This document shows, piece by piece, positions 6,079-59,785 of a stretch of DNA of 64,000 nucleotides. Location: positions 79,298,001-79,362,000 of the forward strand of contig OX597826.1 of NCBI GenBank assembly GCA_951406725.2. Reading direction: 5' to 3'. The DNA is from Octopus vulgaris (taxonomy: Eukaryota). Numbering within the stretch: the first letter of the stretch is position 1; every line of letters begins with the position of its first letter. The position numbers were made by a program, and so were the translations under genes. Under the pieces are notes generated by a model. The model was not told the DNA's origin. It did no database searches and worked only from the letters and a program-made list of their open reading frames with translations.

Positions 6079-8204
6079 GGTATATATATATGTATTATTT
6101 CTTTTAGTTCTTGTTTATTTATCTTGTTCGTATGTGTGTGTGTGTGTGTCTCCTTGTCTAGACATCATGTGATGGTTACCAACGAGGATCACTATCACAT
6201 AAGCACTGTTGTTCTACAGTTTTCTCATGAAAAGGATGTCTGGCCATGAGGAAATGTTACTTTGCTTGGAAACAGTTGAGGGTTGATGACAGGAAGAGCA
6301 TCCGGCTAGAAGAAAATCTGCCTCAGCAAATTCAGGGAAACACTTGCAAGCAGGGAAACACTGACATTAAATGATGAGGATATTGATAATGATGGTGATG
6401 ATGAATGGTTTTTTTTCTTCCTCTCCACTATTATTATCTGTTGTAAATCTGTCGTCAGTATTAACACTATACCGACTGTGTATAACTCAGCTTTGTCCTG
6501 TCTTGATTTTGAATGAAGTCCTTCAATGAGGTCATCCACATTTCGGCTGTATGTCGTGATTCTAACCGAAAACTGCACAATCTTCCCATTAAAGTCGGTG
6601 TTATTACATGAGAAACTCTTTCAGTTTACATAAGGCTTTGGCTGGCCTGAGGCTATAAGTAGAAAACACATGCTCAAAGTGGCACACTATGGGACTGAAC
6701 CCAGAACCATGTAATTGAGAGGCAAACTTCTTACCTCACAGCCATGCCTATATGCCATCATTTAATTTCACGAGCAGGCTGTTCTGTTGATCGGATCAAC
6801 TGGAACCCTCCTCGTCGTGACCGACGGAGTGCAACGACATGGACATATGATGTTATTTTTATAAAATCACAAACATCTCAGTGAATTCGTCATGGGTGGA
6901 AACAGGCGGGGGTTAGCAACAGGAATGGTATCTGGCCATAGAAAATTTGCCACAGTAAGTTACATCTGACGCAAGCGTCCATGATGGTGCCATGTAAAAA
7001 GCACCCAGAACATTCTGTAAAGTGGTTGATGTTAGGGAGGACATGATGCTGCAGAAAGAAGACCAAAACATACAATCGGAGCCTTGTGCAGCTCCTCTGA
7101 AATCTTCAAACCATGGCAGCATGGAAAACGGAAATTAAACGATGAAGAGGACGATGATGACAACAACAACGTATGTATATAAAATATTGAGTGTATTGTT
7201 TTGGCAGGAGTGCCTTTGTGGTACTTCATTTTTGGAGTGGGTTATTGAAATTCAAGTGAAATTTCATAAGTAATTAAAAGTCACCCCTGAAATGTGCCTC
7301 TCTGTTACAATAATAAAAATAATCTGTTTGGAATAATAATAAATTCTTGCCTAATTATCGTGGTTCTTAATCAACAAATTGCCTGACAACTGACTGTTTG
7401 ATTTTGGGGGGCAATGCCAGGTGTATTGGTGTGTGTGTGTGTGTAGATATATGTCTCTGGGTGTATATGTATATTTGTATTTTACCAACAGAAAGTAAAT
7501 TTTGAAAGCTGTAAAGCTGTAAGAACAGCAGAGAAAGGTTAGGGTTTGTCCTTATAAGATGGGAAAATGTTACCATACCTACTGGCAATTTTTTTCCATC
7601 TTCTAAGGATAAAAACCCAATATTTCCCTGCTGTTCTTACAACTTTACTAGTCTTGAAATTTACTCTCGTCTGTAAAATATCAACCAGAGTCGACGCTTC
7701 CAAAGTTTGCTTATAAAATGTCGTCGTATATATGTATGAGTGTATATGTGTATCTGTATATATATATTTGTGTATAAATATTTGTGTTTGTGTGTGTGTA
7801 TATATATATATGTGTATGTGTATGTTTATAGAGAAATATTTGTGTATGTGTAACATCCACCCACCCATCCATCCATCCATTCATCCCTCTTCCACCTTGC
7901 ACATCATCCCTCTACCTTCTCATCTCTTCTTCCTGAGCCATTTCTGTCTCTCTCACCTGACCATTCTCTACACTGATATTTCCCATCAACCACACCTCTG
8001 CCCTTCTTAATCACCCCCTATGTTCACCTCTACCCCCTGTCTCTTGCCATCCATTGCTCTTCTCTCTCCCTCCTGTCCTCTTTCCTTATTCTCTCTTACA
8101 TTCACCTTGTGTCTCGAGAGTCCGCTCTGGCACCTCATCACCACCATGTTCATCTTCTTTCCATCTACTCTCACCTACCTTTATATAATCTGGGGTGGTC
8201 CTGT

Positions 8205-9790
8205 ATTATTAGTCCATCTGCTGTTGTCAATGACCAAGGACATCACATGGGAGAAGATGATGGGGCATCATGTGACCGACTGTGTAGCCAATCAGTCCAG
8301 AAGGTTCTGCCACAGATGGGGCACTGGTAGTCTGTTGGGACCGAAGGCTCTGCCACAGACGGGGCACTGGTAGTCTGTTGGGACCGAAGGCTCTGCCACA
8401 GATGGGGCACTGGTAGTCTGTTGGGACCGAAGGCTCTGCCACAGATGGGGCACTGGTAGTCTGTTGGGACCGAAGGCTCTGCCACAGATGGGGCACTGGT
8501 AGTCTGTTGGGACCGAAGGTTCTGCCACAGACGGGGCACTGGTAGTCTGTTGGGACCGAAGGTTCTGCCACAGATGGGGCACTGGTAGTCTGTTGGGACC
8601 GAAGGTTCTGCCACAGATGGGGCACTGGTAGTCTGTTGGGACCGAAGGCTCTGCCACAGATGGGGCACTGGTAGTCTGTTGGGACCGAAGGCTCTGCCAC
8701 AGATGGGGCACTGGTAGTCTGTTGGGACCGAAGGCTCTGCCACAGATGGGGCACTGGTAGTCTGTTGGGACCGAAGGCTCTGCCACAGATGGGGCACTGG
8801 TAGTCTGTTGGGACCGAAGGCTCTGCCACAGATGGGGCACTGGTAGTCTGTTGGGACCGAAGGCTCTGCCACAGATGGGGCACTGGTAGTCTGTTGGGAC
8901 CGAAGGCTCTGCCACAGATGGGGCACTGGTAGTCTGTTGGGACCGAAGGCTCTGCCACAGATGGGGCACTGGTAGTCTGTTGGGACCGAAGGCTCTGCCA
9001 CAGATGGGGCACTGGTAGTCTGTTGGGACCGTAGGCTCTGCCACAGATGGGGCACTGGTAGTCTGTTGGGACTGAAGGCTCTGCCACAGATGGGGCACTG
9101 GTAGTCTGTTGGGACAGAAGGCTCTGCCACAGATGGGGCACTGGTAGTCTGTTGGGACTGAAGGCTCTGCCACAGATGGGGCACTGGTAGTCTGGTGGGA
9201 CAGAAGGCTCTGCCACAGATGGGGCACTGGTAGTCTGGTGGGACCGAAGGCTCTGCCACAGATGGGGCACTGGTAGTCTGTTGGGACCGAAGGCTCTGCC
9301 ACAGATGGGGCACTGGTAGTCTGGTGGGACCGAAGGCTCTGCCACAGATGGGGCACTGGTAGTCTGTTGGGACCGAAGGCTCTGCCACAGATGGGGCACT
9401 GGTAGTCTGTTGGGACCGAAGGCTCTGCCACAGATGGGGCACTGGTAGTCTGTTGGGACCGAAGGCTCTGCCACAGATGGGGCACTGGTAGTCTGGTGGG
9501 ACAGAAGGCAAGGTGTTGGCACTGGACTTGCGTAGTTTATGTCTTCATTGCGCCCCAGCAATTCTGTTCTCTTCATAGGGGGTGGCACCTCTGTTGGTGC
9601 TGTTTCACTAGGCAAGGTGGTCTTGTGCTTGCATATCCCAGGTGTCCAGGGTCGATCTCTCTGCTCTTCAGTGAGGCTTTGGGTGTGTCCTTGAACTGTT
9701 TATTTTCTGCCCTCCTTCTGTGTGGTTGCCTTTCACCAGTTTGCTCTGAAACAATCTCTTCTGGTGTCATCTATCAGGTATGCATCAGGT
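8205..9790 (-). mobile_element. Degenerate 3' end of an RTE-clade LINE (C-terminal zinc-finger region) hosting the 43-bp array
   Basis: With frameshifts and stops, the minus strand reads IPDR*HQKRLFQSKLVKGNHTEGGQK/KQFKDTPKASLK..ID../DTWDMQAQDH...RGATPYEENRIAGAQ*RHKLRK...DYQCPICGRAF, and after the array IGYTVGHMMPH. This follows the RTE ORF C-terminal pattern GGQKKRFKDTLK...CPxCxRxF...IGLxSHxRxH. Confidence 0.75.
8300..9509. repeat. 43-bp minisatellite array 1, about 28 copies (GCCACAGATGGGGCACTGGTAGTCTGTTGGGACCGAAGGCTCT)
   Basis: Unit starts run from 8309 to 9470 at exact 43-bp spacing. Head-to-tail, no spacers. Confidence 0.97.
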
Positions 9791-9868
9791 ATGTCTCTGT
9801 GTCATATTTCATCTATCTCATGCACACACACACGCACACGCACACACACACACACCACTCAATCCATG

Positions 9869-11330
9869 TCTGCCACAGATGGGGCACTGGTAGTCTGTTG
9901 GGACCGAAGGCTCTGCCACAGATGGGGCACTGGTAGTCTGTTGGGACCGAAGGTTCTGCCACAGACGGGGCACTGGTAGTCTGTTGGGACCGAAGGTTCT
10001 GCCACAGATGGGGCACTGGTAGTCTGTTGGGACCGAAGGCTCTGCCACAGATGGGGCACTGGTAGTCTGTTGGGACCGAAGGTTCTGCCACAGATGGGGC
10101 ACTGGTAGTCTGTTGGGACCGAAGGCTCTGCCACAGATGGGGCACTGGTAGTCTGTTGGGACCGAAGGCTCTGCCACAGATGGGGCACTGGTAGTCTGTT
10201 GGGACCGAAGGCTCTGCCACAGATGGGGCACTGGTAGTCTGTTTGGACCGAAGGCTCTCCCACAGATGGGGCACTGGTAGTCTGTTGGGACCGAAGGCTC
10301 TGCCACAGATGGGGCACTGGTAGTCTGTTGGGACCGAAGGCTCTGCCACAGATGGGGCACTGGTAGTCTGTTGGGACCGAAGGCTCTGCCACAGATGGGG
10401 CACTGGTAGTCTGTTGGGACCGAAGGCTCTGCCACAGATGGGGCACTGGTAGTCTGTTGGGACCGAAGGCTCTGCCACAGATGGGGCACTGGTAGTCTGT
10501 TGGGACCGAAGGCTCTGCCACAGATGGGGCACTGGTAGTCTGTTGGGACCGAAGGCTCTGCCACAGATGGGGCACTGGTAGTCTGTTGGGACCGAAGGCT
10601 CTGCCACAGATGGGGCACTGGTAGTCTGTTGGGACCGAAGGCTCTGCCACAGATGGGGCACTGGTAGTCTGTTGGGACAGAAGGCTCTGCCACAGATGGG
10701 GCACTGGTAGTCTGTTGGGACCGAAGGTTCTGCCACAGATGGGGCACTGGTAGTCTGTTGGGACCGAAGGCTCTGCCACAGATGGGGCACTGGTAGTCTG
10801 TTGGGACTGAAGGCTCTGCCACAGATGGGGCACTGGTAGTCTGTTGGGACTGAAGGCTCTGCCACAGATGGGGCACTGGTAGTCTGTTGGGACAGAAGGC
10901 TCTGCCACAGATGGGGCACTGGTAGTCTGTTGGGACTGAAGGCTCTGCCACAGATGGGGCACTGGTAGTCTGTTGGGACAGAAGGCTCTGCCACAGATGG
11001 GGCACTGGTAGTCTGGTGGGACCGAAGGCTCTGCCACAGATGGGGCACTGGTAGTCTGTTGGGACCGAAGGCTCTGCCACAGATGGGGCACTGGTAGTCT
11101 GGTGGGACCGAAGGCTCTGCCACAGATGGGGCACTGGTAGTCTGTTGGGACCGAAGGCTCTGCCACAGATGGGGCACTGGTAGTCTGTTGGGATCGAAGG
11201 CTCTGCCACAGATGGGGCACTGGTAGTCTGTTGGGACCGAAGGCTCTGCCACAGATGGGGCACTGGTAGTCTGTTGGGACCGAAGGCTCTGCCACAGATG
11301 GGGCACTGGTAGTCTGGTGGGACAGAAGGC
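9869..11330. repeat. 43-bp minisatellite array 2, about 34 copies
   Basis: Unit starts run from 9872 to 11291 at exact 43-bp spacing. Same unit and same variant types as array 1. Confidence 0.97.
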
Positions 11331-11685
11331 AAGGTGTTGGCACTGGACTTGCGTAGTTTATGTCTTCATTGCGCCCCAGCAATTCTGTTCTCTTCATAGG
11401 GGGTGGCACCTCTGTTGGTGCTGTTTCACTAGGCAAGGTGGTCTTGTGCTTGCATATCCCAGGTGTCCAGGGTCGATCTCTCTGCTCTTCAGTGAGGCTT
11501 TGGGTGTGTCCTTGAACTGTTTATTTTCTGCCCTCCTTCTGTGTGGTTGCCTTTCACCAGTTTGCTCTGAAACAATCTCTTGTGGTGTCATCTATCAGGT
11601 ATGCATCAGGTATGTCTCTGTGTCATATTTCATCTATCTCATGCACACACACACGCACACACACACACACCACTCAATCCATGTC
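11331..11685. repeat. Near-identical duplicate of 9510-9870 (LINE remnant plus CA tract)
   Basis: Differences seen: one substitution (TCTCTTCTGG versus TCTCTTGTGG) and the length of the CA tract. Confidence 0.93.
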
Positions 11686-13877: not shown

Positions 13878-14486
13878 AGCATTGATGTTAAGGTAACAAG
13901 AATCGTTAACACAGCATGCAAAACGCTTAGTGGTGTTCTGTCTGGTTTTATGTTCTGAGTTCAAGTTCTGTCAGAGTTGGCTTTGCTGTTTATCCATTTG
14001 GGGTCAATAAAATAGGTGCCAGTCAAATACTGGGGTTGATGTAATCAACTTCCCCTTCCCCTTCCCTCGAACAACTGCTGGCCCTGTGCCAAAATTTGAA
14101 ACCCTTATTAGTCTTGATGTTATTTAATCTGATGGCAGCACTGTCAAGTAGATTCATAATCAAAGGCATTCCAGCCAGGATCATCCCCTCTTAATTTTTT
14201 TCTTTTCTGCGCAATGTATGTAGGATTGAGGAAGATTTGGCTGCTATTTCAAGTGACCACTTATTGATTCTCTCGTTGTTTTCTACTTATGCTGTTGTTA
14301 TTGTTGATGTTGTTGTTTTTCTTTGTTCTGAGTCTGAATTTTGTTTGGTTTGTGGCAGAGTTTGTTTCTGAAACAAGAGGAAGGAAAGACGACACCTTGT
14401 TAGATTTCAAACACGTCAAACGGATCAGCTTTCTTTTCCCTAATGCTTCGTTAATTTTCTTTTTTTTCCTTCTTGAATTGCAGTAT

Positions 14487-15260
14487 GCCACCACCACCAC
14501 CACCACCATCATCACAACCACCATTGCCACTACCACCACCACTGCCATCGCCACAGCCAACACCACCACCACTGCTGCCACCACTACCACCACCACCATT
14601 GCCATCACCATAACCACCACTATCACCACCGCCCCACCACCATTGCCACTACCACCATCACTGCCACCACCAACACCACCACAACCACCACCGCCACCAC
14701 CACAACTACCAACACCATCACCACCACCATCATTGCCACCACCACCACCACCACCACCATCACCACCACCATCACTACTACCACCACCAATAGCACCAAC
14801 ACCATTGCCACTACCACCACCACCACCACCACACACACCACCACCAATACCAATAGCACCAACACCATTGCCACTACCACCACCACCACCACCACAACCA
14901 CCATCACCACCACCATCACAACCACCATTGCCACTACCACCACCACCATCGCCATCACCATAACCACCACGCTTACCCCCCAACCACCACTATCACCGCC
15001 GCCCCACCACCATTGCTACTGCCACCATCACTACCAACACCCAAACCACCACCACCACCACCATCGCCACCACCACCACCATCGCCACCACCACCATCGC
15101 CATCACCACCATAACCACCAAACCACCACCACCACCACCACCACCACCACCACCACCACCACCACCACCACCACCACCATCACCACCACCATCATTGCCA
15201 CCACCACTACTGCCACTACCACCATCACTGCTGCTACCACCACCGCAACTATTACATCAC
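14487..15260. repeat. Long degenerate (ACC)n trinucleotide repeat
   Basis: About 770 bp of ACC/ACT/ATC/GCC triplets with internal block duplications. Confidence 0.95.
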
Positions 15261-18194
15261 AATCACCAGCACTACAGTGAACATGCTCATTACCAAGGCA
15301 ACTTCAAACGTCACCCTTGACACCTTCACCATAACCACTACTACCACCATCACTTACACCAACACCAACACCAACAACAGCAAGAACGCCCCTCCCAACA
15401 ACAACAACCCCATCCCCACCATCACCACCCCTGCTGTCACTTTAACTAAAATAGCAACAAGCACACCACCACCACCACCGCCACTCCCTCCACCACAGTA
15501 ATTGCCTCTACAAACACATGCTTTCCCCCATCTCCGCCAGTAACGAAGTGGTCAGTGATAACATGATGTATAAGTGAACAGGATATCTAGGTTCACATCC
15601 TGGTTGTACTTTTAAACCCCATCCCCCTCCCTGTCAATCTTACTTCTTTCTTCTCACGCTCATTCCTTCTATTTTACCCCCTCCTCCTCCTACTCCTTCT
15701 ATCTCTCACTCTTTTCCCTCCTACTCCTTGAGCTTAAAATAGTCATGAGACAAATATCAAAACAATCTCAAAACAATTAAAACAAATTTTTTTTGTTTTT
15801 CAATAATTAAATAATCAATGGCGGTGCCCCAGCATGGCCACAGCTTGTGAGCTGAAACTAAATAAAATTTTTAAAAAATAATGACTTTCAGATTGTGACA
15901 CAGAGCCAGCAATTTTGAGGGAGGAAGTAAGTTGATTGCATCAACCCCAGTGTCCAACTGGTACTCATTTTGTCGACCCTGAAAGGGTGAAAGGTAAAGT
16001 TGACCTTGGCGGAATTTGAACTCAGAACATACAGATGGATAAAAAAAAATGCTGCTAAGCATTTCGACCCAGGGGTGCTAAGGATTCTGTCAGCTTGCCT
16101 TTTTAATTATATAAGACCTTCAAGCATACTTGTGATGCTTTTATCTCATCATCATCATCGTTTAATGTCTGTTTTCCATGCTGGCATGGGTTGGATGGTT
16201 TGACACGGAGTTGGCCAGCCATGAAGCTGTTCAGACTCCAATTGTCTGTTATGGCATGGTTTCTACAGCTGGATGCCATTCCTAACACCAACCACTCAGC
16301 AGAGTGTGCTGGGTTCTCTTAGTGTGCCACTGGCATGGGTGCATTTTATGTGCCGCTGGCTTGGATGCATTCCTTATCTTTCCAAAATCTGCTGCATTTC
16401 ACCTGGAATTTTCGGACCTTCAAAGTCATCTTGGTATATGAGTCAACTCATGGTTTTTGGCCGTAAATTTTGGTCAGAAAAATTTGGTTTTTATGCCATA
16501 AAATTCAGTACTTATTGGTGTTCATTTAACTGCTTATAAAGTGACTCAGAATGTTTCCGATCTGTCTTCTTGATTTTGTTCATGGTGGCCAACAACAGTG
16601 CCACCTGATTGGCAACCATGCCGGTGGCACGTAAAAAGCACCATTTGAGCTTGGTTGATGCCAGTGCTGTCTGACTGGCTCTTGTGCCAGTGGCATGTAA
16701 AAAGCACCATTTGAACATGGTCAATGCCAATGCTGGCTAACTGGTCCCATGTCAGTGAGCGTGGTCGTTGCCAGTGCCGCCTGACTAATTCCTGTGCTGG
16801 TGGCATATAAAAAGCACCACCCAAGTGCAGCTGATGCCAGTACCGCCTGACTGGCCCTCGTGCACCCACTACACTCCTGGAGTGGTTGGTGTTAAGAAGG
16901 GCATCCAGCTGTAGAAACATTGCCAGATTGGATTGGAGCCTGGTACAGCCTTCTGGCTCACCAGCCCTCAATCAAACCGTCCAACCCATGCCAGCATGGA
17001 AAGTGGACGTTAAATGATGACGATGATGATGAGTGGGAAAGCAACTACTCTCTCCTCTCCTCCCACGAACCCCTGTTCATATCCTCCCTTATGCTCACTT
17101 TGTTTCTTGAGATTTTCCTCCAGCATCCCATCATGACTTTCCTGTGTCTCCTCTACAGCAAGACACCTGTGCTCATCCCTTTTTTAGCCTTTCAACTCCT
17201 GGCATACAGCCACCCACTGCCACCTTCCTCTCCCTCTTAGTTGTAGGAGCTGTTTTCTTTTCCATCTTGCAAGTTACATGGCAACATCACGAGTTGATGA
17301 TGCCATGACAAAAAAGCATCTGGCCCACTCTGCAGAGTGGTTGGTATTAGGAAGGGCTTCCAGCCATAGAAACCCTGCCAAAACAGAAACAGTAACCTAG
17401 GGTAGTTTTTTACCTGGCTGGCTCCTGTCAGCTGTCCTACCCATGTATGCATGGGAGACAGACATTAAATGATGAAGATGATGATCCAACCGTAGATATT
17501 GTGCCAAAGGTGACATTGGATCTAGGCACAGTCCCGTAGCTTGCTGGTTCCTTGTCGAAGTGTCCAACCCATGCCAGCAGGGAAAGCAGATGTTAAATGA
17601 TGATGATGATGTCCCTACTGCACTGCCAATGAGATGTACTATATATCTGTGCACCCATAGACATGATGAGGTCTTTTCAACTTCATGTACAGCAGCAATG
17701 TATTCTATATTTTCTCCTTCGGCAGCAGAGAAGTTGCACACCGTACAAGGTCCAAGGGGAAACTTGTTGTACGAGCCCTGCTTTCTTCCCTGTTTGACAC
17801 CTTGGGAAATATAAATACATGGCGTTAGGAAGGGCATCCAGCTGTAGAAACTCTGCCAGATCAAGATTGGAGCCTGGTGCAGCCATCTGGTTCTCCAGTC
17901 CTCAGTCAAAATCGTCCAACCCATGCTAGCATCGAAAGCAGATGTTAAATGATGATGATGATGATGATGATGATGTAGCTTAAGACAAGCTGTCGTTTAT
18001 TTGAGACTGAATTTCAGCATCCAATAGAGCCATAAATAGATGCAGAAATGGCTGAAGTCAAATGATGAAATAAATTCAGATTTAAAACAAACCAAGGAAA
18101 GTTCAAACAATGGGAAACTGAGACAAAAATTGTGTTTGGTCAAAATATCTCCTACTTCACCATTTGCTTTGGGATTATATCAATATGTAGTAGA

Positions 18195-31180: not shown

Positions 31181-33479
31181 CATATATACGATGGGCTTCT
31201 TTCAGTTTCCGTCTACCAAATCCACTCTCAAGGCTTTGGTCAGCCCGAAGCTATAGTACAAGACACCTGCCCAAGGTGCCATGCAGTGGAACTGAACCTG
31301 GAACCATGTGGTTGGTAAGCAAGCTACTTACCCCACAACCACTCCTCTGTGCCTAAATAGTAATAATCTATTTCTCTGCCCCTAATTGCAAAAGTTGCAT
31401 GGGTCTTTGCCAACCCAGCATCCCTGTGTGCAATTCTGAAATCAGCTTTCATTCTCTTTGCCCACATCTTCCTCAATCTTCCTTTTCTCATTTTGATCTC
31501 TTAGCATCTTTCCACCCATCTCTCATCCTCCTATCCTCCAAAATCATCTCTTGTCTTTGACAATGCAGACCCAATGCCCTCTGCACCCTGATTCACCTCT
31601 TACCTGGTTTTAACTCAGTTCACCTGTGCTCTGTTGTTCATACATGCTACAATGCTTGTGTGTATACGACCACACTTTCACTCAAGCAGGCTTATTTCAT
31701 TTCTCTCTCATCTTTATACACTCTCTGCATTCAATACTCCTGTTACTCTTATTTGCTTCCCTTTGAAGCGTCGGGTAACATGCCATGCTTGAGGAGACTT
31801 ATTGAGTCAAATAAAATCAAAAATCAAAATTAAATTACAATCAGAATCTCAATCAAATTGAAATTCAAAATGGAAATTGTAGTTGTGGCCGATGTCAGTG
31901 CCACCTGACTGGTTCCCATGCTGGTTTCACGCAATAAGCACCATTCATGCATGAGTCATTGCCAGTGCTGCCTGACTGGCTCCTTGTGCCGGTGGCACAT
32001 AAAATATTCCATCCGAATGTGGCCGATGCCAGCCCTCCCCCCTGCCCCGAGTGGCTCCTGTGCTGGTAGCATGTAAAAAGCACCATCCGAACGTGGCTGA
32101 TGCCAGTGTTGCCTGACTGGCTCCCTTGCCGGTGGCACATAAAAGCACCCACTACACTCTTGGAGTGGTTGGCACTAGGAAGGGCATCCAGCTGTAGAAA
32201 CCTTGCCAGATCAGACTGGAGCCTGGTGCAGCCTTCTTGCTCACCAGTCCTCAGTCAAACCGTCCGAACCATGCCAGCATGGAGAGCGGACGTTAAACAA
32301 TGATGATGATGAGGATTCGCCAACAATTGTTTTATTTCACAAATAAAATTAAAATTGCAAAACATAAAAATATATAATTTTACATTTTAAATACCTTATA
32401 AAGAAAACGATCAGAGTGTGCAGAGGACACGCTCTCACTCTCTGTGACCTCGTGTGTACCGTTGGTGATTTTTTTCCTCTGTCTTCCCTTCTCTGGATCT
32501 TACCTTCTCATATGTTTCCAACGAAGAGCTCCGCTCGAAACATTAAACCCTCCTTCTTTCCTGAGCGTCCAATAATACTATATTTGTTCCACGTCCTCGC
32601 GTTGTTGTGTTTTTTTGTGCTTTTTTGTTTGGATTAACTATATATATATATATGTGTGTATATATGTATATATATGTTATAGATTTGTATGACCTTTCAG
32701 CCATTGATTTACACCCAAGTAAATTGCCATTATGTTACTTAAAGGCATTTTATTGATTTCAGTACCAACTTCTGGTTAAAATTAGGACTTTGAAAAGTTC
32801 TTGGACTTATTTATATAGGCACAGGAATGACTATGTAGTAAATAGCTTGCTTACCAACCACATGGTTCTGGGTTCAGTCCCACAGTGGTTTGGCAAAAGA
32901 GACCAATAGAATAAGTACTAGGCTTACAAAGAATAAGTCCCGGGGTCGATTTGCTCGACCAAAGGCAGTGCTCCAGCAGGGCCGCATCCAAATGACTGAA
33001 ACAAATAAAAGAGTAAAAGACTTTACCACTTATTAATTCACTGCAGTTAAAGTGGAATAATATTTCTCCTGCACAATTTCCTGCTTTGTTTTAATAATTT
33101 TTTTTTTCATATCCAACTCTAGTGGGCTTCCCATTAATTTCCCTTATTCCAACTTAAAATAGACAAGCCTCTCTTTATTAATCTATTTAAGTATGTACTA
33201 AAAATTCATTATTATTTTTTGTTCTCTGCTTATTCTGCCTTTGTGCAAACAGCTTGTATCCTGCTCTCTTTCATTTAGTAACTCTTTCAGCTTTTATAGA
33301 CTTACGCAGTTTCCCTTTTATTTTCTTCCTGCCTGGTCGTTTGGCCTTTTAATTTGCTGCTTCTAAATATTTTGTATTTGTTTTGTGTCAGCCTCAGAAC
33401 TTTTGTTGTTGATCTTTGTAAGTGGATGCATGTGTGTTTGTGTGAATGTGTGGATACTTTTATGCACACTCTTGTGTAT

Positions 33480-33488
33480 ATGTGTGTG

Positions 33489-33524
<36 letters not shown>

Positions 33525-33841
33525 TATGTGTATGTGTATATATATATATACATATGTATGTATATATATATATATATGCATATGTGTATGTGTATATATA
33601 TATATATATGCATATGTGTATATATATATGCATATGTGTATGTGTATATATATATATATATGCATATGTGTATGTGTATATATATATATGCATATGTGTG
33701 TATATATATATATGCATATGTGTGTATATATATATATGCATATGTGTGTATATATATATATGCATATGTGTGTATATATATATATATGCATATGTGTATG
33801 TGTATATATATATATACATATGTGTATGTGTATATATATGC

Positions 33842-33899
<58 letters not shown>

Positions 33900-33915
33900 G
33901 TACGTGTGTGTATAT
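33480..33915. repeat. Compound (TA)n/TGCATATGTG microsatellite
   Basis: Repeating (TA)n-TGCATATGTGTATGTG units over about 430 bp. Confidence 0.95.
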
Positions 33916-34601
33916 ATGTGTGGCTGTGTGGTAAGAAATTTGTTTCCCAGTTACACGGTTCCATGTTCACTCCCACCGCATGGCACCTTGGGCAAATGTC
34001 TTCCACTATAGCCAGCTGTAGCCTTGGGCCAACCAAAGCTTTCTGAGTGGATCTGGTAGATGAACCCTGAAAGAAGCCCATTGTATATATATATATTTAC
34101 CAGGGACAGAGTGAATGTGTCGGCAGCAGGGTATATTGCTTTTCCCTTCTACCACCGACTTGGTCAGTCACACTTCTTCGGGTTCTGTCACTTGTTCCTC
34201 CACAGTTTGTTTAGTTCTCCCTTCATTCTGCCCTTCCTCTGTCCTCAGTCCTTCAGGGCTTTTTCATTTCATTTTGCATTACCCACATTCGCCCGTCTGA
34301 TAGCCATAAGCCTTTTTTGTTTTTTGTTGTATTTCTTGTTGTATTTGTATAACTATTATAATTGGTTTGTTTGTTTTCGTCAGTGTCCTTTATGTTTGTT
34401 AGCTTTTCCCAGTGGCTTTTTGGCTTTTTTTTTTTTGCACTGGTGCCTCCAGTAAAGGAGTGGTCTCAATTATAACAGCAGAAAACTACTAAGATCTCTT
34501 GGACGTTGACTGATAAGGAATTAGCTACGAATTTCCTGTGTGTTTTGCTTTTGTCAAATTTTCAAGTTGTCATGGTTTTTTAAAAAATAATCCTTTATAT
34601 A

Positions 34602-39586: not shown

Positions 39587-39662
39587 CCTCACCGGGACAC
39601 ACTTAAATATGGGCAGTCTGAAGAACTGCCACTTTATGAAGGCGAAAAGAACCAAGGAATGG
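39587..39662 (+). CDS. MTMR2: Myotubularin-related protein 2-like, coding exon (76 bp, phase 0/1)
   Basis: ctttag|PHRDTLKYGQSEELPLYEGEKNQGM|gtaagt. Matches the EEPPLLPGENIKDM region preceding PH-GRAM. Confidence 0.85.
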
Positions 39663-45671: not shown

Positions 45672-48600
45672 ATCATCATCATCATCATCGTTTAACGTCC
45701 GCTTTCCATGCTAGCATGGGTTGGACGGTTCAACTGGGGTCTGGCAAGCCCGAAGGCTACACCAGGCCAGTCAGATCTGGCAGTGTTTCTACAGCTGGAT
45801 GCCCTTCCTAACGCCAACCACTCCGAGAGTGTAGTGGGTGATTTTATGTGCCACCGACACAGGTGCCAGACGAGGCTGGCAGACGGCCACGCTCAGATGG
45901 TGTTTTTTATGTGCCACCGACACAGGTGCCAGACGAGGCTGGCAGACGGCCACGCTCGGATGGTGTTTTTTTTTTTATGTGCTACCGACACAGGTGCCAG
46001 ACGAGGCTGGCGAACGGCTACAATCGGATGGTGTTTGTTACATGCCCACAGCACGGAGGCCAGTCAATGCGGTACTGGCTACAGTCCCGTTCGGATGGTT
46101 TTCTTATGTGCCACCGGCACTGGTACCACAGGGATACAAATTCCATTGATGTTCATCTATTTTGATTTGGTTTGACTTGATTCGATTTGACTTTGATTTT
46201 GATTTGATTTGCCTCAACAGGTCTTCACAAGTGTCACAAGCAGGAAGGTATGCACAGGTGGACTGGCTACGTCCCAGGTAGGGGCCACGGGTTATGGCTT
46301 CACTAGTCTTGCCGGGTCTTCTCACGCACAGCATACTTCCATAGGTCTCGGTCTCTAGTCATTTCCATGGTGAGACCTAACGTTCGAAGGTCGTGCTTCA
46401 CCACCTCGTCCCAGGTTTTCCTGGGTCTACCTCTTCCACGGGTTCCCTCAACTGCTAGGGATTGGCACTTTCTCACACACCTATCTTCATCCATTCTCGC
46501 CACATGACCATACCAGCGCAATCGTCTCTCTTGCACGCAACAACTGATGCTTCTTAGGTACAACATTTCTCTCAGGGAACTAACGCTCTGTCGAGTAAGT
46601 ACACTGACATTACACATCCATCGGAGCATACTGGCTTCATTCCTCATGAGCTTACGCATGTCCTCAGCAGTCACGGCCCATGTTTCACTGCCATGTAGCA
46701 TGGCAGTTCGAACACATGCATCATACAGTCTGCCCTTTACTCTGAGCGAGAGGCCTTTAGTCACCAGCAGAGGTAAGAGCTCCCTAAACTTTGCCCAGGC
46801 TATTCTTATTCTAGCAGTTACACTCTCAGCGCACCCACCCCCACTACTGACTTGGTCACCTAGATAACGGAAGCTATCAACTACTTCTAATTTTTCCCCC
46901 TGGAAAGTGACGGAAGCTGTTTTCTGCAGATTTTCGGAGGTCAATGCTCCCGAGCATCTGCCACATATAAAAACTATCTTCCCAGTTAGCCTACCTTTGA
47001 CATTGCTGCACCTCTTATGTGTCCATAGCTTACACTGGGTACATCTTATAGAGTTTCTACCTACACCTTTTCTACAGATCGAGCAGGGCCATCTTCCTGA
47101 GGACATTTGTGGATTGCCTATCTTTCTACTTATTAGTACTTTGGTTTTAGCTAGGTTGACTCTAAGGCCCCTCGCTTCTAAACCCTCCTTCCACACCTGG
47201 AACTTCTCCTCCAGTTCTGATAGTGACTCAGCAATTAGAGCGAGGTCGTCAGCATAGAGGAGCTCCCAGGAGCAACCTGTCTTGAATTCCTCTGTTATTG
47301 CCTGGAGGACTATGATAAATAGGAGGGGCTGAGTACTGAACCCTGGTGGACCCCAACCTCTACTTTGAATTCTTCTGTGAACATGTTGCCAACCCTAACC
47401 TTGCTTACGGCATCTCTGTACATGGCTTGCACAGCCCTCACCAGCCATTCGTCTATCCCTAGTTTCCTCATTGACCACCAGATGAGGGATCGGGGGACCC
47501 TATCAAAGGCTTTCTCCATATCAACGAAAGCCAGGTACAGGGGCTTATCTTTGGCTAGGTATTTCTCCTGCAGCTGCCTTACCAGGAATATAGCATCAGT
47601 GGTGCTTTTCCCTGGCACAAACCCAAACTGCATCTCATCTAAACTAACTCTCTCTCTAATTAGTTGGGCTATGACCCTCTCCGTAACCTTCATTACCTGA
47701 TCCAACAGCTTGATACCTCTGTAATTATTTGTATCTAGGGCATCACCTTTACCTTTGTAGCAGTTGACTAGTACGCTGCTACACCAGTCATTGGGTATGA
47801 CTCCTTCGTGTATCACCTGGTTGACTATACGGGTGACTAGGTTATAACCGACACTGCCAGATATTTTGAGCATCTCTGCAGTAATTCCTGATGGGCCTGG
47901 GGCTTTCCCTGTCTTCATGCTTCTAATTGCCTTAGCTACCACGGAACTATCAACTCGGATAGCTGGTCCCTCTGTTGGGTCAACATTCGGCAGACTCTCT
48001 TTATCCCATTCATTTTCTTTATTCAGCAACCTTTCATAGTGGCATCTCCAAACCTCTCTCTTTGCATCCTCATTTAGCGCAAGTGAACCATCATCCATGC
48101 GAACACACTTCTCTCCTACCACATCACGATTCTCTCTCACACACTGTCTTGCAACATGAAATACCTCAAGTCTTTCATCCTCACGGCGCAGAACATTGGC
48201 AAATTTTTTCTTATCTGCTTCCCCTCTGGCTAAATAAACCTGTCTCCTAGCCTCCCTTCTGGCTGTCTGATACAATTCCCTGCTACCACCGTTCTTCCAG
48301 TCCCTCCAAGCCTGTCTCTTTTGTCTAATAGCCCTGTCAACCACAGTGTTCCACCACCATGTTACTCTGGGTTGAGATGGTACTTTGCTCCATCCACAGA
48401 TCTGGTCAGTGGCTGTCAGATTGTCCCGTAGAAATCTCCAGTTGTCTTTCACATTAAGTGAAGCTATATCCCCTTCTATTTCGTCAAAGGCTTCGAGTAG
48501 TATGTCTCTAAATCTCTGTCCATTTGCGGGATCTTTAAGCTTCCAGACCCTTCTCCTCCAAGCAGGTCTTCTTCTGGGCAACCATTTAGCTCTGATCCTG

Positions 48601-48806
48601 AAGTCGCTAACTACTAATCTATGTTGAGGAGTGCATTCTTCGCCTGGAAAAGTTTTGGCATTTATAATCAGCCGTCTCTCCCTTTTTCTGGCAAGGATGT
48701 AGTCAATCTGGCTGGTGTGTCTGCCAGAACGGTAGGTGACTAGGTGAGAGGAGAGTTTCCTGAAGTTGGTATTGCAGACCATAAGGTCATTTGCATCGCA
48801 GATCTC
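45672..48806 (-). mobile_element. Young 5'-truncated RTE-clade LINE (partial APE endonuclease, reverse transcriptase, 3' UTR), antisense in an MTMR2 intron
   Basis: ORFs 47310-48887 and 46303-47196 carry SQIDYIL, GEECTPQHRLV, KAPGPSG, NYRGIKLL, QFGFVPG, FVDMEKAFDRVP and GVHQGSVLSP, with LLYADDL between them and RRLRWYGHV and RGRGRPRKTW further on. One frameshift near 47325. About 630 bp of 3' UTR ending in (GAT)n. Confidence 0.95.
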
Positions 48807-49606
48807 TGTGAAAAAAAAAATAGAAGCCCAACTGGTTATGTGATTTAGAAGTTTGGTTTGGTTTGGTTTGTAACAGGCACATGCCATCAGTAATTACTCA
48901 GGGTAGGCATTTGGTGACCTTTATGTAGTAAAACACAGAAAAAGTCAAGTGAAACACATGCGTGCGACTGAGTTGAAGACAGATTTACTTCTGCCTTTAT
49001 AGTGCATAAAGAAAATGTTGTTGTAGGAATGTATGCAGCATGTGTACTACAGCAGTCCTATGTGTAGCTTAAATACTGAGATTGAAAGGTAGGGGCGAAT
49101 TATGCCTACCTAATCTATACTTGATTCCCAGGGGCGAATTATGCCTACCTAATTGTACTTGATTCCTATTAATTTCCAGGGGTTAATACAATAATCATTT
49201 GTAAATAGGGTCTGTTGTGATCAATAATTATCAACATATCAAGATGAAAGTCTCCAAATTATCAATAGATAACCCCAGGGTCATGAAGGTTTACAATTCT
49301 TTCACAGTCTTATCAAAATAAAAAAGTCTGGCTTAATTAGGCTCGTTAAGATTGAATGGTCTGACAAGTTCAAGGTAATGCGATAATCAAATCTGTCAGG
49401 TTCAGAATTATTAATTGTGGAAATTGATTTCTTATGTGGTGGGGGAGGTGGCAAAGGTAGCTGCTGCTGTGGTTGTTTGTTGTTGTTGTTGTTGTTGTTG
49501 TTGTTGATGATGAGTTTGCTGTTATAAACCTCAATAAATCTCATCAATTTGTGATAATTGAAATTATGTAATTTGTCAGAATATAGACCTAAATAGAATG
49601 AATTAA

Positions 49607-59512: not shown

Positions 59513-59596
59513 CCACCACCACCATCTACTACTACTACTACTACTTGATAGTTTATCCTTACTTATTCAGAGTATTTCTGTGTCTGTTTTCAACAG

Positions 59597-59785
59597 GTGA
59601 TGTCATGGATCCACCCAGAGTCGCAGGCGACCATCACTCGTTCCAGCCAACCTTTGGTCGGAGTCACTGGCAAGCGGAACAAAGAAGATGAACAATACAT
59701 TCAGATGATTATGGATGCCAACGCCCAGTCGCACAAACTGTTCATCATGGATGCTCGACCCAGTGCAAATGCCATGGCCAACAAG
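59597..59785 (+). CDS. MTMR2: MTMR2-like coding exon (189 bp, phase 0/0)
   Basis: caacag|[63 protein letters not shown]|gtcacc. Confidence 0.97.

Follow-up and report, generated by a model that had tools for sequence, protein, structure and literature searches.

The 62 tandem 43-bp units in the octopus DNA analyzed here (the window, a 64,000-nucleotide stretch from Octopus vulgaris) very probably constitute a single-locus minisatellite born in the zinc-finger end of a truncated, stop-broken LINE copy, where slippage or unequal exchange took place between two 6-bp direct repeats, its open frames being a non-coding by-product. We regard the array as most likely an ordinary variable repeat and not a new gene, because the frames are likely accidental and the second half of the finger is missing. 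The original prediction had proposed a de novo poly-zinc-finger-like protein, a reading that fared poorly: the period was preset, stop-free strands are common, the ATG occurs in paralogs, the finger has lost its helix half and the His varies. It had rightly named neutral slippage as the alternative. Our literature search found no paper on this locus.

The anchors of the 62 units were spaced exactly 43 bp apart, with a single 402-bp gap splitting them into two arrays of 60% GC (Table 1). In array 2, the 33 whole units at 9906-11324 are preceded by a 37-bp partial unit from 9869. The plus strand of the unit carries a TAG in every copy and the minus strand has no stop in any frame. Since the unit is stop-free and its length is not a multiple of three, all three frames are open and each yields the same 43-aa repeat. 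The claims of about 62 units, a stop-free minus strand and one common repeat were thereby borne out, as was the frame roll, by which an indel changes only the phase in which that repeat is read. The quoted 16-residue peptide does contain the unit, but its 48 nt also take in most of the 6-bp direct repeat. The minisatellite is single-locus: the tandem-junction motif had 52 matches in the genome, all 52 at the array locus, and the control had none. A multi-locus satellite was rejected, the junction-motif matches being confined to one locus. We also rejected a hotspot that duplicates the same segment in other LINE copies, given that no exact junction-motif match was present elsewhere (diverged cases would escape).

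Table 1. Features of the array locus and its host gene, in window coordinates
Feature	Position	Strand	Remarks
LINE 3' end: damaged second half of zinc finger and 3' tail	8204..8299	-	18-paralog alignment
Minisatellite array 1	8300..9503	-	28 x 43 bp; unit = first half (CxxC-x3-F) of LINE finger
ATG open frame, 449 codons (ORF1)	8227..9576	-	9 CxxC repeats; gene status unsupported
6-bp direct repeat GCCTTC (minus strand)	9504..9509	-	Same as the unit's final 6 bases; sets the 43-bp period
5'-truncated fragment of LINE ORF C-terminus	9504..9784	-	Native frame has stops
Flank with (CA)n tract	9785..9870	.	Ends at duplication junction; 2-bp overlap with unit at 9869-9870
Minisatellite array 2	9869..11324	-	Partial unit + 33 x 43 bp; within ~1.8-kb tandem duplication
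ATG open frame, 512 codons	9859..11397	-	11 CxxC repeats; gene status unsupported
Second copy of LINE fragment and flank	11325..11685	-	Against 9504-9870: 1 substitution, 6-bp (CA) difference
MTMR2 coding exon 2 (residues 95-119)	39587..39661	+	tblastn of P0003; closes the array-bearing intron

Our alignments support a LINE C-terminal zinc finger as the source of the 43-bp unit. As originally claimed, LINE homology extends to both sides of array 1, and the alignments with paralogs agree: the unit aligns in them once and in register, as a single segment of the other element copies. The second half of the finger at 8204..8299 has a small deletion plus an insertion relative to the paralogs, most of whose matches stop at 8204-8209. 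What is left of the LINE copy is a ~420-bp 3' fragment broken by stops, and its family is old, with copies ~74% alike. One paralog (L147) matched residues 928-1045 of P0212, a 1050-aa protein with Exo_endo_phos and RVT_1 domains, and RVT_1 or an endonuclease was present in five of the seven long protein matches scanned, the other two being fusions to unrelated proteins. The parent segment is the C-terminus of an endonuclease and reverse transcriptase ORF. The P0212-type relatives were found by HMMER; a word-based search with the paralog C-terminus returned nothing. No reverse transcriptase was detected upstream of 20 paralog loci (4.6 kb each) by tblastn with another LINE that the window contains, nor by Pfam on 13 ORFs, and the 20 genomic copies so examined were all truncated, at most ~650 bp in length.

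The period is 43 because direct repeats that pre-existed in the LINE family bound the segment. The flanking pair of 6-mers matched at 6/6 positions in 17 of 95 paralogs and at least at 5/6 in 59 of 95, and the segment between them was 43 bp long in 86 of 95. The unit is therefore bounded by a family-wide direct repeat of 6 bp, within the 5-10 bp expected of such repeats. The ~420-bp LINE 3' fragment sits within an intron of MTMR2 and is antisense to that gene, and the direct repeats, a family trait, fix the period at 43. We propose that a first duplication between the direct repeats predated the split of the sampled lineages, with later expansion and homogenisation via slippage, conversion or unequal crossing-over. 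In the assembly, and with rough depth support in two of three DNA-type runs, a subsequent ~1.8-kb duplication gave rise to array 2. The stop-free unit of non-3n length opens three frames that spell the 43-aa repeat; these are probably not translated under selection, and would gain stops with the age of the array.

Rough unit-to-flank depths in seven runs corresponded to ~2-3 units in X5, X6 and X9, 6-9 units in X8, 15-21 units in X2 and X3 and ~45 units in X1, figures that express contig depth and not copy number and that contigs missing from the listing could raise. In some individuals or species the array seems to be just ~2-3 units long. The ~1.8-kb duplication begins inside a unit, with a 2-bp overlap at its junction, and the spacer had a depth relative to presumed single-copy contigs of ~2.4x in X1, ~2.7x in X2 and ~0.6x in X6. 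Both observations, the latter being what a real polymorphic duplication would give, argue against the very unlikely explanation that the assembly falsely duplicated array 2 together with its flank, by setting two alleles or erroneous reads one after the other, and that there is a single real array. That explanation would account for the near-identity of the two flank copies and for base 9761, which distinguishes copy 1 and was read as the copy-2 base in all three covering runs. The (CA)n tract beside the junction was without coverage in all runs. The verdict on coding is the same whether or not the duplication is real.

Chance suffices to account for the open frames and for the absence of stop variants. 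Both frames were confirmed as described, 449 codons from the ATG at 9576 and 512 codons from that at 11397. Shuffled units were stop-free in 24% of cases on a given strand and in 34% on either. Arranged in tandem, 34 of the 93 paralog segments would lack stops (two of the 95, with segments of 3n length, being excluded; 6/9 among paralogs chosen for likeness to the unit vs 28/84 among the others), and CxxC was retained in 26 of those 34. The consensus strand was stop-free in 3 of 9 other complex non-3n octopus arrays from ~1.0 Mb, a small control that mixes random, neighbouring, paralog and window sequence. Two of these three have the same 26-bp period and could belong to a single family. Against the chance reading, no complex array in 600 kb of evenly sampled genome had an open frame near the length of the two ATG frames: a strict filter gave six arrays there, four of them non-3n and none of the four stop-free, and a looser one gave 1/5 non-3n arrays stop-free. 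As had been stated, none of the nine distinct substitutions among the array units creates a minus-strand stop, yet this result is not significant (P = 0.36) because only 14 of the 129 possible unit substitutions make one, and nine variants offer little power for detecting selection against stops.

Of 85 paralogs, 25 carry the ATG triplet at the corresponding position, where it is out of frame, and its context in the array (CCCCCT-ATG-A) is weak under the Kozak rule. The long open frames are likely an accidental, non-coding by-product. The alternative is that an antisense transcript is translated as a de novo repeat protein, with CxxC binding metal together with the rolled His or between repeats. 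We consider this highly improbable, the weak ATG context being one point against it; the length of the two frames speaks for it, as does a 38-nt variant junction in run X6 that is also stop-free. ORF1 had no homolog among proteins of 246-786 aa, the exact 449-aa and 512-aa sequences were absent from the protein collection searched, and the ESM Atlas returned sub-0.9 matches to C2H2-like clusters alone, with a recognition value under its threshold. Two weak tests also disfavor translation: neither AATAAA nor ATTAAA was present in the 1 kb that follows the ORF1 stop, and the 1 kb preceding the ATG at 11397 lacked a TATA-like motif. Alleles of ~2-3 units, moreover, would encode at most one rolled motif.

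With respect to the zinc finger itself, the array retained just the CxxC-F half of its parent, the helix half being gone. The parent finger reads C-x2-C-x3-F-x5-L-x2-H-x3-H, with its ligand spacing intact in 21 of 95 paralogs and its core Leu kept in 65 of 95. In the C2H2 consensus, the core Leu lies six residues after the Phe; in the rolled repeat, this site is occupied by Pro and two further Pro lie between Phe and His. The three prolines in the would-be recognition helix argue against a functional finger. The C-x2-C-x3-F-x8-H pattern reported in the rolled frame was recovered, as C-x2-C-x12-H with the Phe four residues on, in 19 of the 20 repeats that the two ATG frames contain, a point in favor of the protein. 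The fourth ligand was indeed missing at its normal distance, with no His or Cys 3-5 residues after the rolled His in any of the 20 repeats, which counts against it; the His eight residues later, noted earlier for variant units, was present in 1 of the 20, as H-x7-H. In the accessible text of PMC12264921, the C2H2 rule is 12 residues from CxxC to the first His, and a finger that takes its fourth ligand from a neighbouring finger is described, which would favor metal binding by the repeats.

The Pfam scan suggested earlier for zf-C2H2 did not return a whole finger: the best stretch of the rolled repeat covered profile positions 1-12 of 23, and that for zf-C2HC_2 covered 4-18 of 25. Whole-protein zinc-finger scores exceed the curated cut-offs solely by summing over the repeats. 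An intact paralog finger matched zf-C2H2_4 over 1-24 of 24, though under the cut-off. AlphaFold gave the rolled repeat a mean pLDDT of 46.6, with a helix that begins at the His; for an intact paralog finger the value was 66.7 and the helix preceded the His. This comparison tells weakly against the protein because both models were single-sequence, with no alignment and no zinc. Foldseek found no match at E <= 0.001 for either the rolled-repeat model or the control, and is uninformative. The position of the rolled His is a rare coincidence, although noticed post hoc, because C-x2-C-x12-H would arise in none of the 93 paralog segments and no paralog has His at that codon (Asp in 45/86, Asn in 30/86, His in 0/86). 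That the spacing is absent from these segments is a further point for translation. Only 1 of the 93 segments is stop-free and also has some His or Cys at a distance of 8-16 residues from CxxC. The His codon encodes Arg in 3 of the 62 units, and also in the first unit (place 8317) in runs X5 and X9.

The host gene of the array is MTMR2, which encodes a phosphatase; its first coding intron spans ~58 kb and contains the array in antisense orientation. Exon 1 (residues 1-94) was located ~18.6 kb upstream of the window by tblastn of P0003 in neighbouring stretches, so that ~27 kb separate it from the array and ~28 kb separate the array from exon 2. These distances disfavor the possibility that the array, while non-coding, is cis-acting and tunes MTMR2 transcription or splicing from intron 1 through its length; a plus-strand exon, in addition, would hit a stop within any three units. 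The location in the first coding intron, the 60% GC and a length that seems widely variable are consistent with such a role, and in the accessible part of PMC12776774 non-coding VNTRs that act on regulation form a known class. On balance we consider it very unlikely. Run X3, RNA by guess, had unstranded contigs over both flanks and the unit, which DNA or MTMR2 pre-mRNA would fit equally well; run X14, also RNA by guess, had no contig over 9455-9950 and is neutral regarding expression.

As a single-locus minisatellite, the array provides a clean worked example of how such a repeat is born between the short direct repeats of a LINE; it could also be a useful, highly variable marker in Octopus. 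It also calls for caution in annotation: similar arrays could make C2H2 genes seem more numerous than they are where cephalopod genomes are rich in repeats, because the summed Pfam zinc-finger scores of 450-500-codon ORFs pass the curated cut-offs. If translation and metal binding were true, this would be a natural repeat protein made from all three frames of one short unit, of which the literature searched offered theory and engineered constructs only. The boldest form of this idea, a natural Ohno-type gene at birth that is antisense-translated, frameshift-proof and length-polymorphic, and that binds metal with a third ligand supplied from another frame, has a very slim chance of being correct. 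The octopus genome has 26-bp Cys/His-rich rolling arrays elsewhere; these would be a standing pool of proto-genes if such a reading were true.

Comparison with known systems places the array among transposon-derived repeats. Ohno's 1987 oligomeric-repeat idea is said to be that a tandem, stop-free short unit gives long frames tolerant of frameshifts. Engineered microgene polymers, in which short units are polymerised in tandem (PMC1874597, accessible text), share with that idea and with our array a unit stop-free in three frames, its tandem arrangement, mixed frames and tolerance to frameshifts; the octopus array differs in being natural, apparently accidental and known from sequence alone. 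The human orf143 in VPS9D1-AS1, a young ORF lengthened by a tandem array of variable copy number, is similar and lends some support to the translated reading; it is, however, translated and lies in a known RNA gene (PMC12888051, accessible text), whereas the octopus ORF is a prediction from the DNA letters alone.

Cephalopod tandem C2H2 genes likewise repeat a CxxC motif in tandem and place a His after 12 residues, but they have the core Leu, the helix and the second His that are missing in the rolled repeat. Real C2H2 fingers repeat about every 28 residues, against 43 in the octopus array. We found nothing that ties the array to the cephalopod C2H2 expansion, as had been suggested, and the accessible text of PMC12513265 treats that expansion as gene duplication. 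The octopus RTE LINE RTE-2_OV is described as having a single ~1,100-aa ORF with endonuclease, reverse transcriptase and C2H2 finger (PMC9115989, accessible text), a layout shared by P0212; the LINE copy at the array differs as a broken 3' fragment of an old family whose layout agrees with that of RTE-2_OV.

The closest counterparts are the transposon-derived minisatellites that, in the accessible texts of PMC3389668 and PMC6947457, form between 5-10 bp direct repeats under the model of Haber and Louis, and the Alu-derived minisatellites of Jurka and Gentles with the same route of origin. Like these, the octopus array has an internal retroelement segment as its unit, a short direct repeat at the edges and a single locus, and its copy number may likewise be variable. 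Its parent is the coding 3' end of a LINE, not a SINE or LTR element, and the unit therefore has half a zinc-finger motif and a stop-free strand. The octopus array can be assigned to this known route from transposon to minisatellite.

The 62 copies of the 43-bp unit in the window form two arrays, whose positions are collected in the table. No stop codon occurs on the unit's minus strand, and on the plus strand each unit carries a TAG. Since 43 is not divisible by three, every frame passes through all three readings, recurring each 43 residues, and the ATG-started frames run for 449 and 512 codons; the array itself was accurately described in the original prediction. Simple repeats of (TA)n and (CCA)n type at window 33300-34096 and 14261-15280 are open for 200-270 codons in several frames, and are a further source of spurious long ORFs.

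Positions of the repeat arrays and the MTMR2 exons (window coordinates unless a locus is named)
Feature	Position	Strand	Description
Array 1	8300-9503		28 x 43 bp
Array 2	9869-11324		33 units and one partial unit
MTMR2 coding exons	39587-63471	plus	11 in window, by protein mapping
L146 array	L146:3510-4223 (G000 C19)		26-bp (3n+2) minisatellite, 17.8 copies
L049 array	L049:9564-9916 (G000 C13, upstream of MTMR2)		second 26-bp array, 13.7 copies

The array flank has many diverged genomic copies (at least 41 matches in one listing; 150 of 1323 candidates scored in another). Alignment with 18 LINE copies showed that the window sequence is a single element interrupted in register by the array. The C-terminal region of one paralog aligns with residues 928-1045 of a protein of 1050 aa that contains an endonuclease and a reverse transcriptase, identifying the parent element as a LINE and bearing out the proposed descent of the unit from a LINE zinc finger. 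The layout agrees with that of the octopus RTE element in PMC9115989. The window copy is a ~420-bp 3' fragment whose own frame contains stops. The parent finger reads C-x2-C-x3-F-x5-L-x2-H-x3-H, and 21 of 95 paralogs preserve the spacing of its ligands; the array retains only its CxxC-x3-F half. The paralog nearest to the unit, L008 (G000 C13:80.67 Mb; 95% across 43 bp and 81% across the flank), lies 1.4 Mb from the array in opposite orientation and has one unit only.

The 6 bases preceding the first unit are the last 6 bases of the unit. Across the LINE family this pair, 43 bp apart, matches at 6/6 positions in 17 of 95 paralogs and at 5/6 or better in 59, and the segment between the 6-mers is 43 bp in 86. 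The period was thus set by the LINE's own sequence, and selection on reading frame is not required. Slippage or unequal exchange between the 6-bp repeats probably produced the first duplication. This direct-repeat route to minisatellites is among the subjects reviewed in PMC6947457, and PMC3389668 gives such flanks for 300 of 7,276 human TE-derived repeats.

The tandem-junction motif has 52 genome matches, every one at this locus. The orthologous left flank and tandem junction were found in Logan contigs of runs labelled with four organisms, which makes the first duplication older than the divergence of these organisms. Dividing unit depth by that of the flank or of presumed single-copy sequence gave ~2-3 units in runs X5, X6 and X9, 6-9 in X8, 15-21 in X2 and X3 and ~45 in X1; these are rough figures from the contigs listed, as contig depth is not a copy number and X1 may be the assembly source. 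A variant junction of 38 nt also occurs in X6, and its minus strand is likewise free of stops. To the right of array 2 stands a second copy of the 367-bp flank found on the right side of array 1; it differs by one substitution and has a shorter (CA) tract, which makes array 2 part of a ~1.8-kb tandem duplication starting within a unit. Relative to single-copy sequence, spacer depth was ~2.4x in X1, ~2.7x in X2 and 0.6x in X6 (a measure of the spacer), which fits a real, polymorphic duplication; a false duplication in the assembly is very improbable. Window 9761 is the sole base telling the flank copies apart, and the copy-2 base was read in 3/3 covering runs; the difference is either a private variant or an assembly error.

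The exon at 59594-59782 is a 100% match to Octopus MTMR2 proteins. When a 705-aa MTMR2 protein (P0003) was mapped, residues 95-119 aligned to the plus strand at 39587-39661 and residues 1-94 to a site ~18.6 kb outside the window on its upstream side, placing the arrays within the first coding intron (~58 kb), which is transcribed, of a coding region of ~90 kb in all. As MTMR2 is on the plus strand, the long ORFs are antisense to their host gene. The locus is a real LINE-derived intronic minisatellite and is probably hypervariable; that the array acts as a cis-regulatory VNTR is improbable. A different LINE lies antisense in an MTMR2 intron (46303-48893, minus); its reverse transcriptase domain is spread over two overlapping frames of 527 and 363 codons, the second of which contains a PHD-like Cys-rich insert.

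The long open frames are very likely a neutral by-product. Shuffling the unit (100,000 trials) left a given strand stop-free in 24% and either strand in 34%; paralog segments made tandem in silico were stop-free in 34 of 93 cases, 26 of which keep CxxC; and other complex non-3n arrays in ~1.0 Mb had a stop-free consensus strand in 3 of 9. The ATG, an out-of-frame triplet in the LINE, is at the same site in 25 of 85 paralogs. The lack of stop variants needs nothing beyond chance: 14 of 129 possible substitutions make stops, against 0 among 9 distinct variants (P = 0.36). Together these results make the open frames unsurprising. The L146 array, one of the three stop-free examples, yields a Cys/His-rich repeat of 26 aa that rolls through the frames; one of these is open for 220 codons and reads on without a frame change into the C-terminal finger region of the LINE family behind the 43-bp unit, and the others have stops. 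The L049 array, possibly related, is His/Trp-rich with two plus-strand frames open over its full length. Arrays of this length and uniformity are uncommon, and evenly spaced samples totalling 600 kb held none with a comparable frame.

The claim of a poly-zinc-finger-like repeat stands for the first three ligands, C-x2-C-x3-F-x8-H being present in 19 of 20 repeats, and fails for the rest of the finger: Pro occupies the core Leu site, two further Pro precede the His, and none of the 20 repeats has a fourth ligand 3-5 residues past it. A Pfam zf-C2H2 scan, one of the checks proposed with that claim, matched at best profile positions 1-12 out of 23, and the high scores for the whole proteins are sums over repeats. 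AlphaFold without alignment gave the repeat a pLDDT of 46.6, with a helix beginning at the His, and an intact paralog finger 66.7, a contrast that is weak evidence; Foldseek was uninformative for both models. No homolog of the ORF1 product was found among proteins of 246-786 aa, and neither ORF product occurs as an exact sequence in the protein collection.

The His, supplied by another reading frame, is two base changes from the usual family sequence. It occurs at that codon in 0 of 86 paralog 43-mers, and C-x2-C-x12-H would arise from 0 of 93 paralog segments, which counts against the neutral reading and keeps translation into a metal-binding protein above zero, though extremely improbable. 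Against translation stand the Pro at the core Leu, the missing fourth ligand and homolog, and an Arg codon at the His position in 3 of 62 window units and in the first unit of X5 and X9, the first unit being the one that would supply the His in a two-unit allele. L008 carries the same letters in its 44-bp segment, suggesting that the codon predates the array. We read the His as a ~1 in 100 coincidence, spotted post hoc among many repeats. With stop-free strands common, half a finger retained and the period drawn from LINE direct repeats, a de novo poly-zinc-finger protein is unsupported.

The rolling-frame arithmetic of oligomeric repeats was reportedly described by Ohno. Engineered microgene polymers (PMC1874597) exploit the same arithmetic as the octopus array. 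Functional coding VNTRs usually have unit lengths that are multiples of three, according to PMC12776774.
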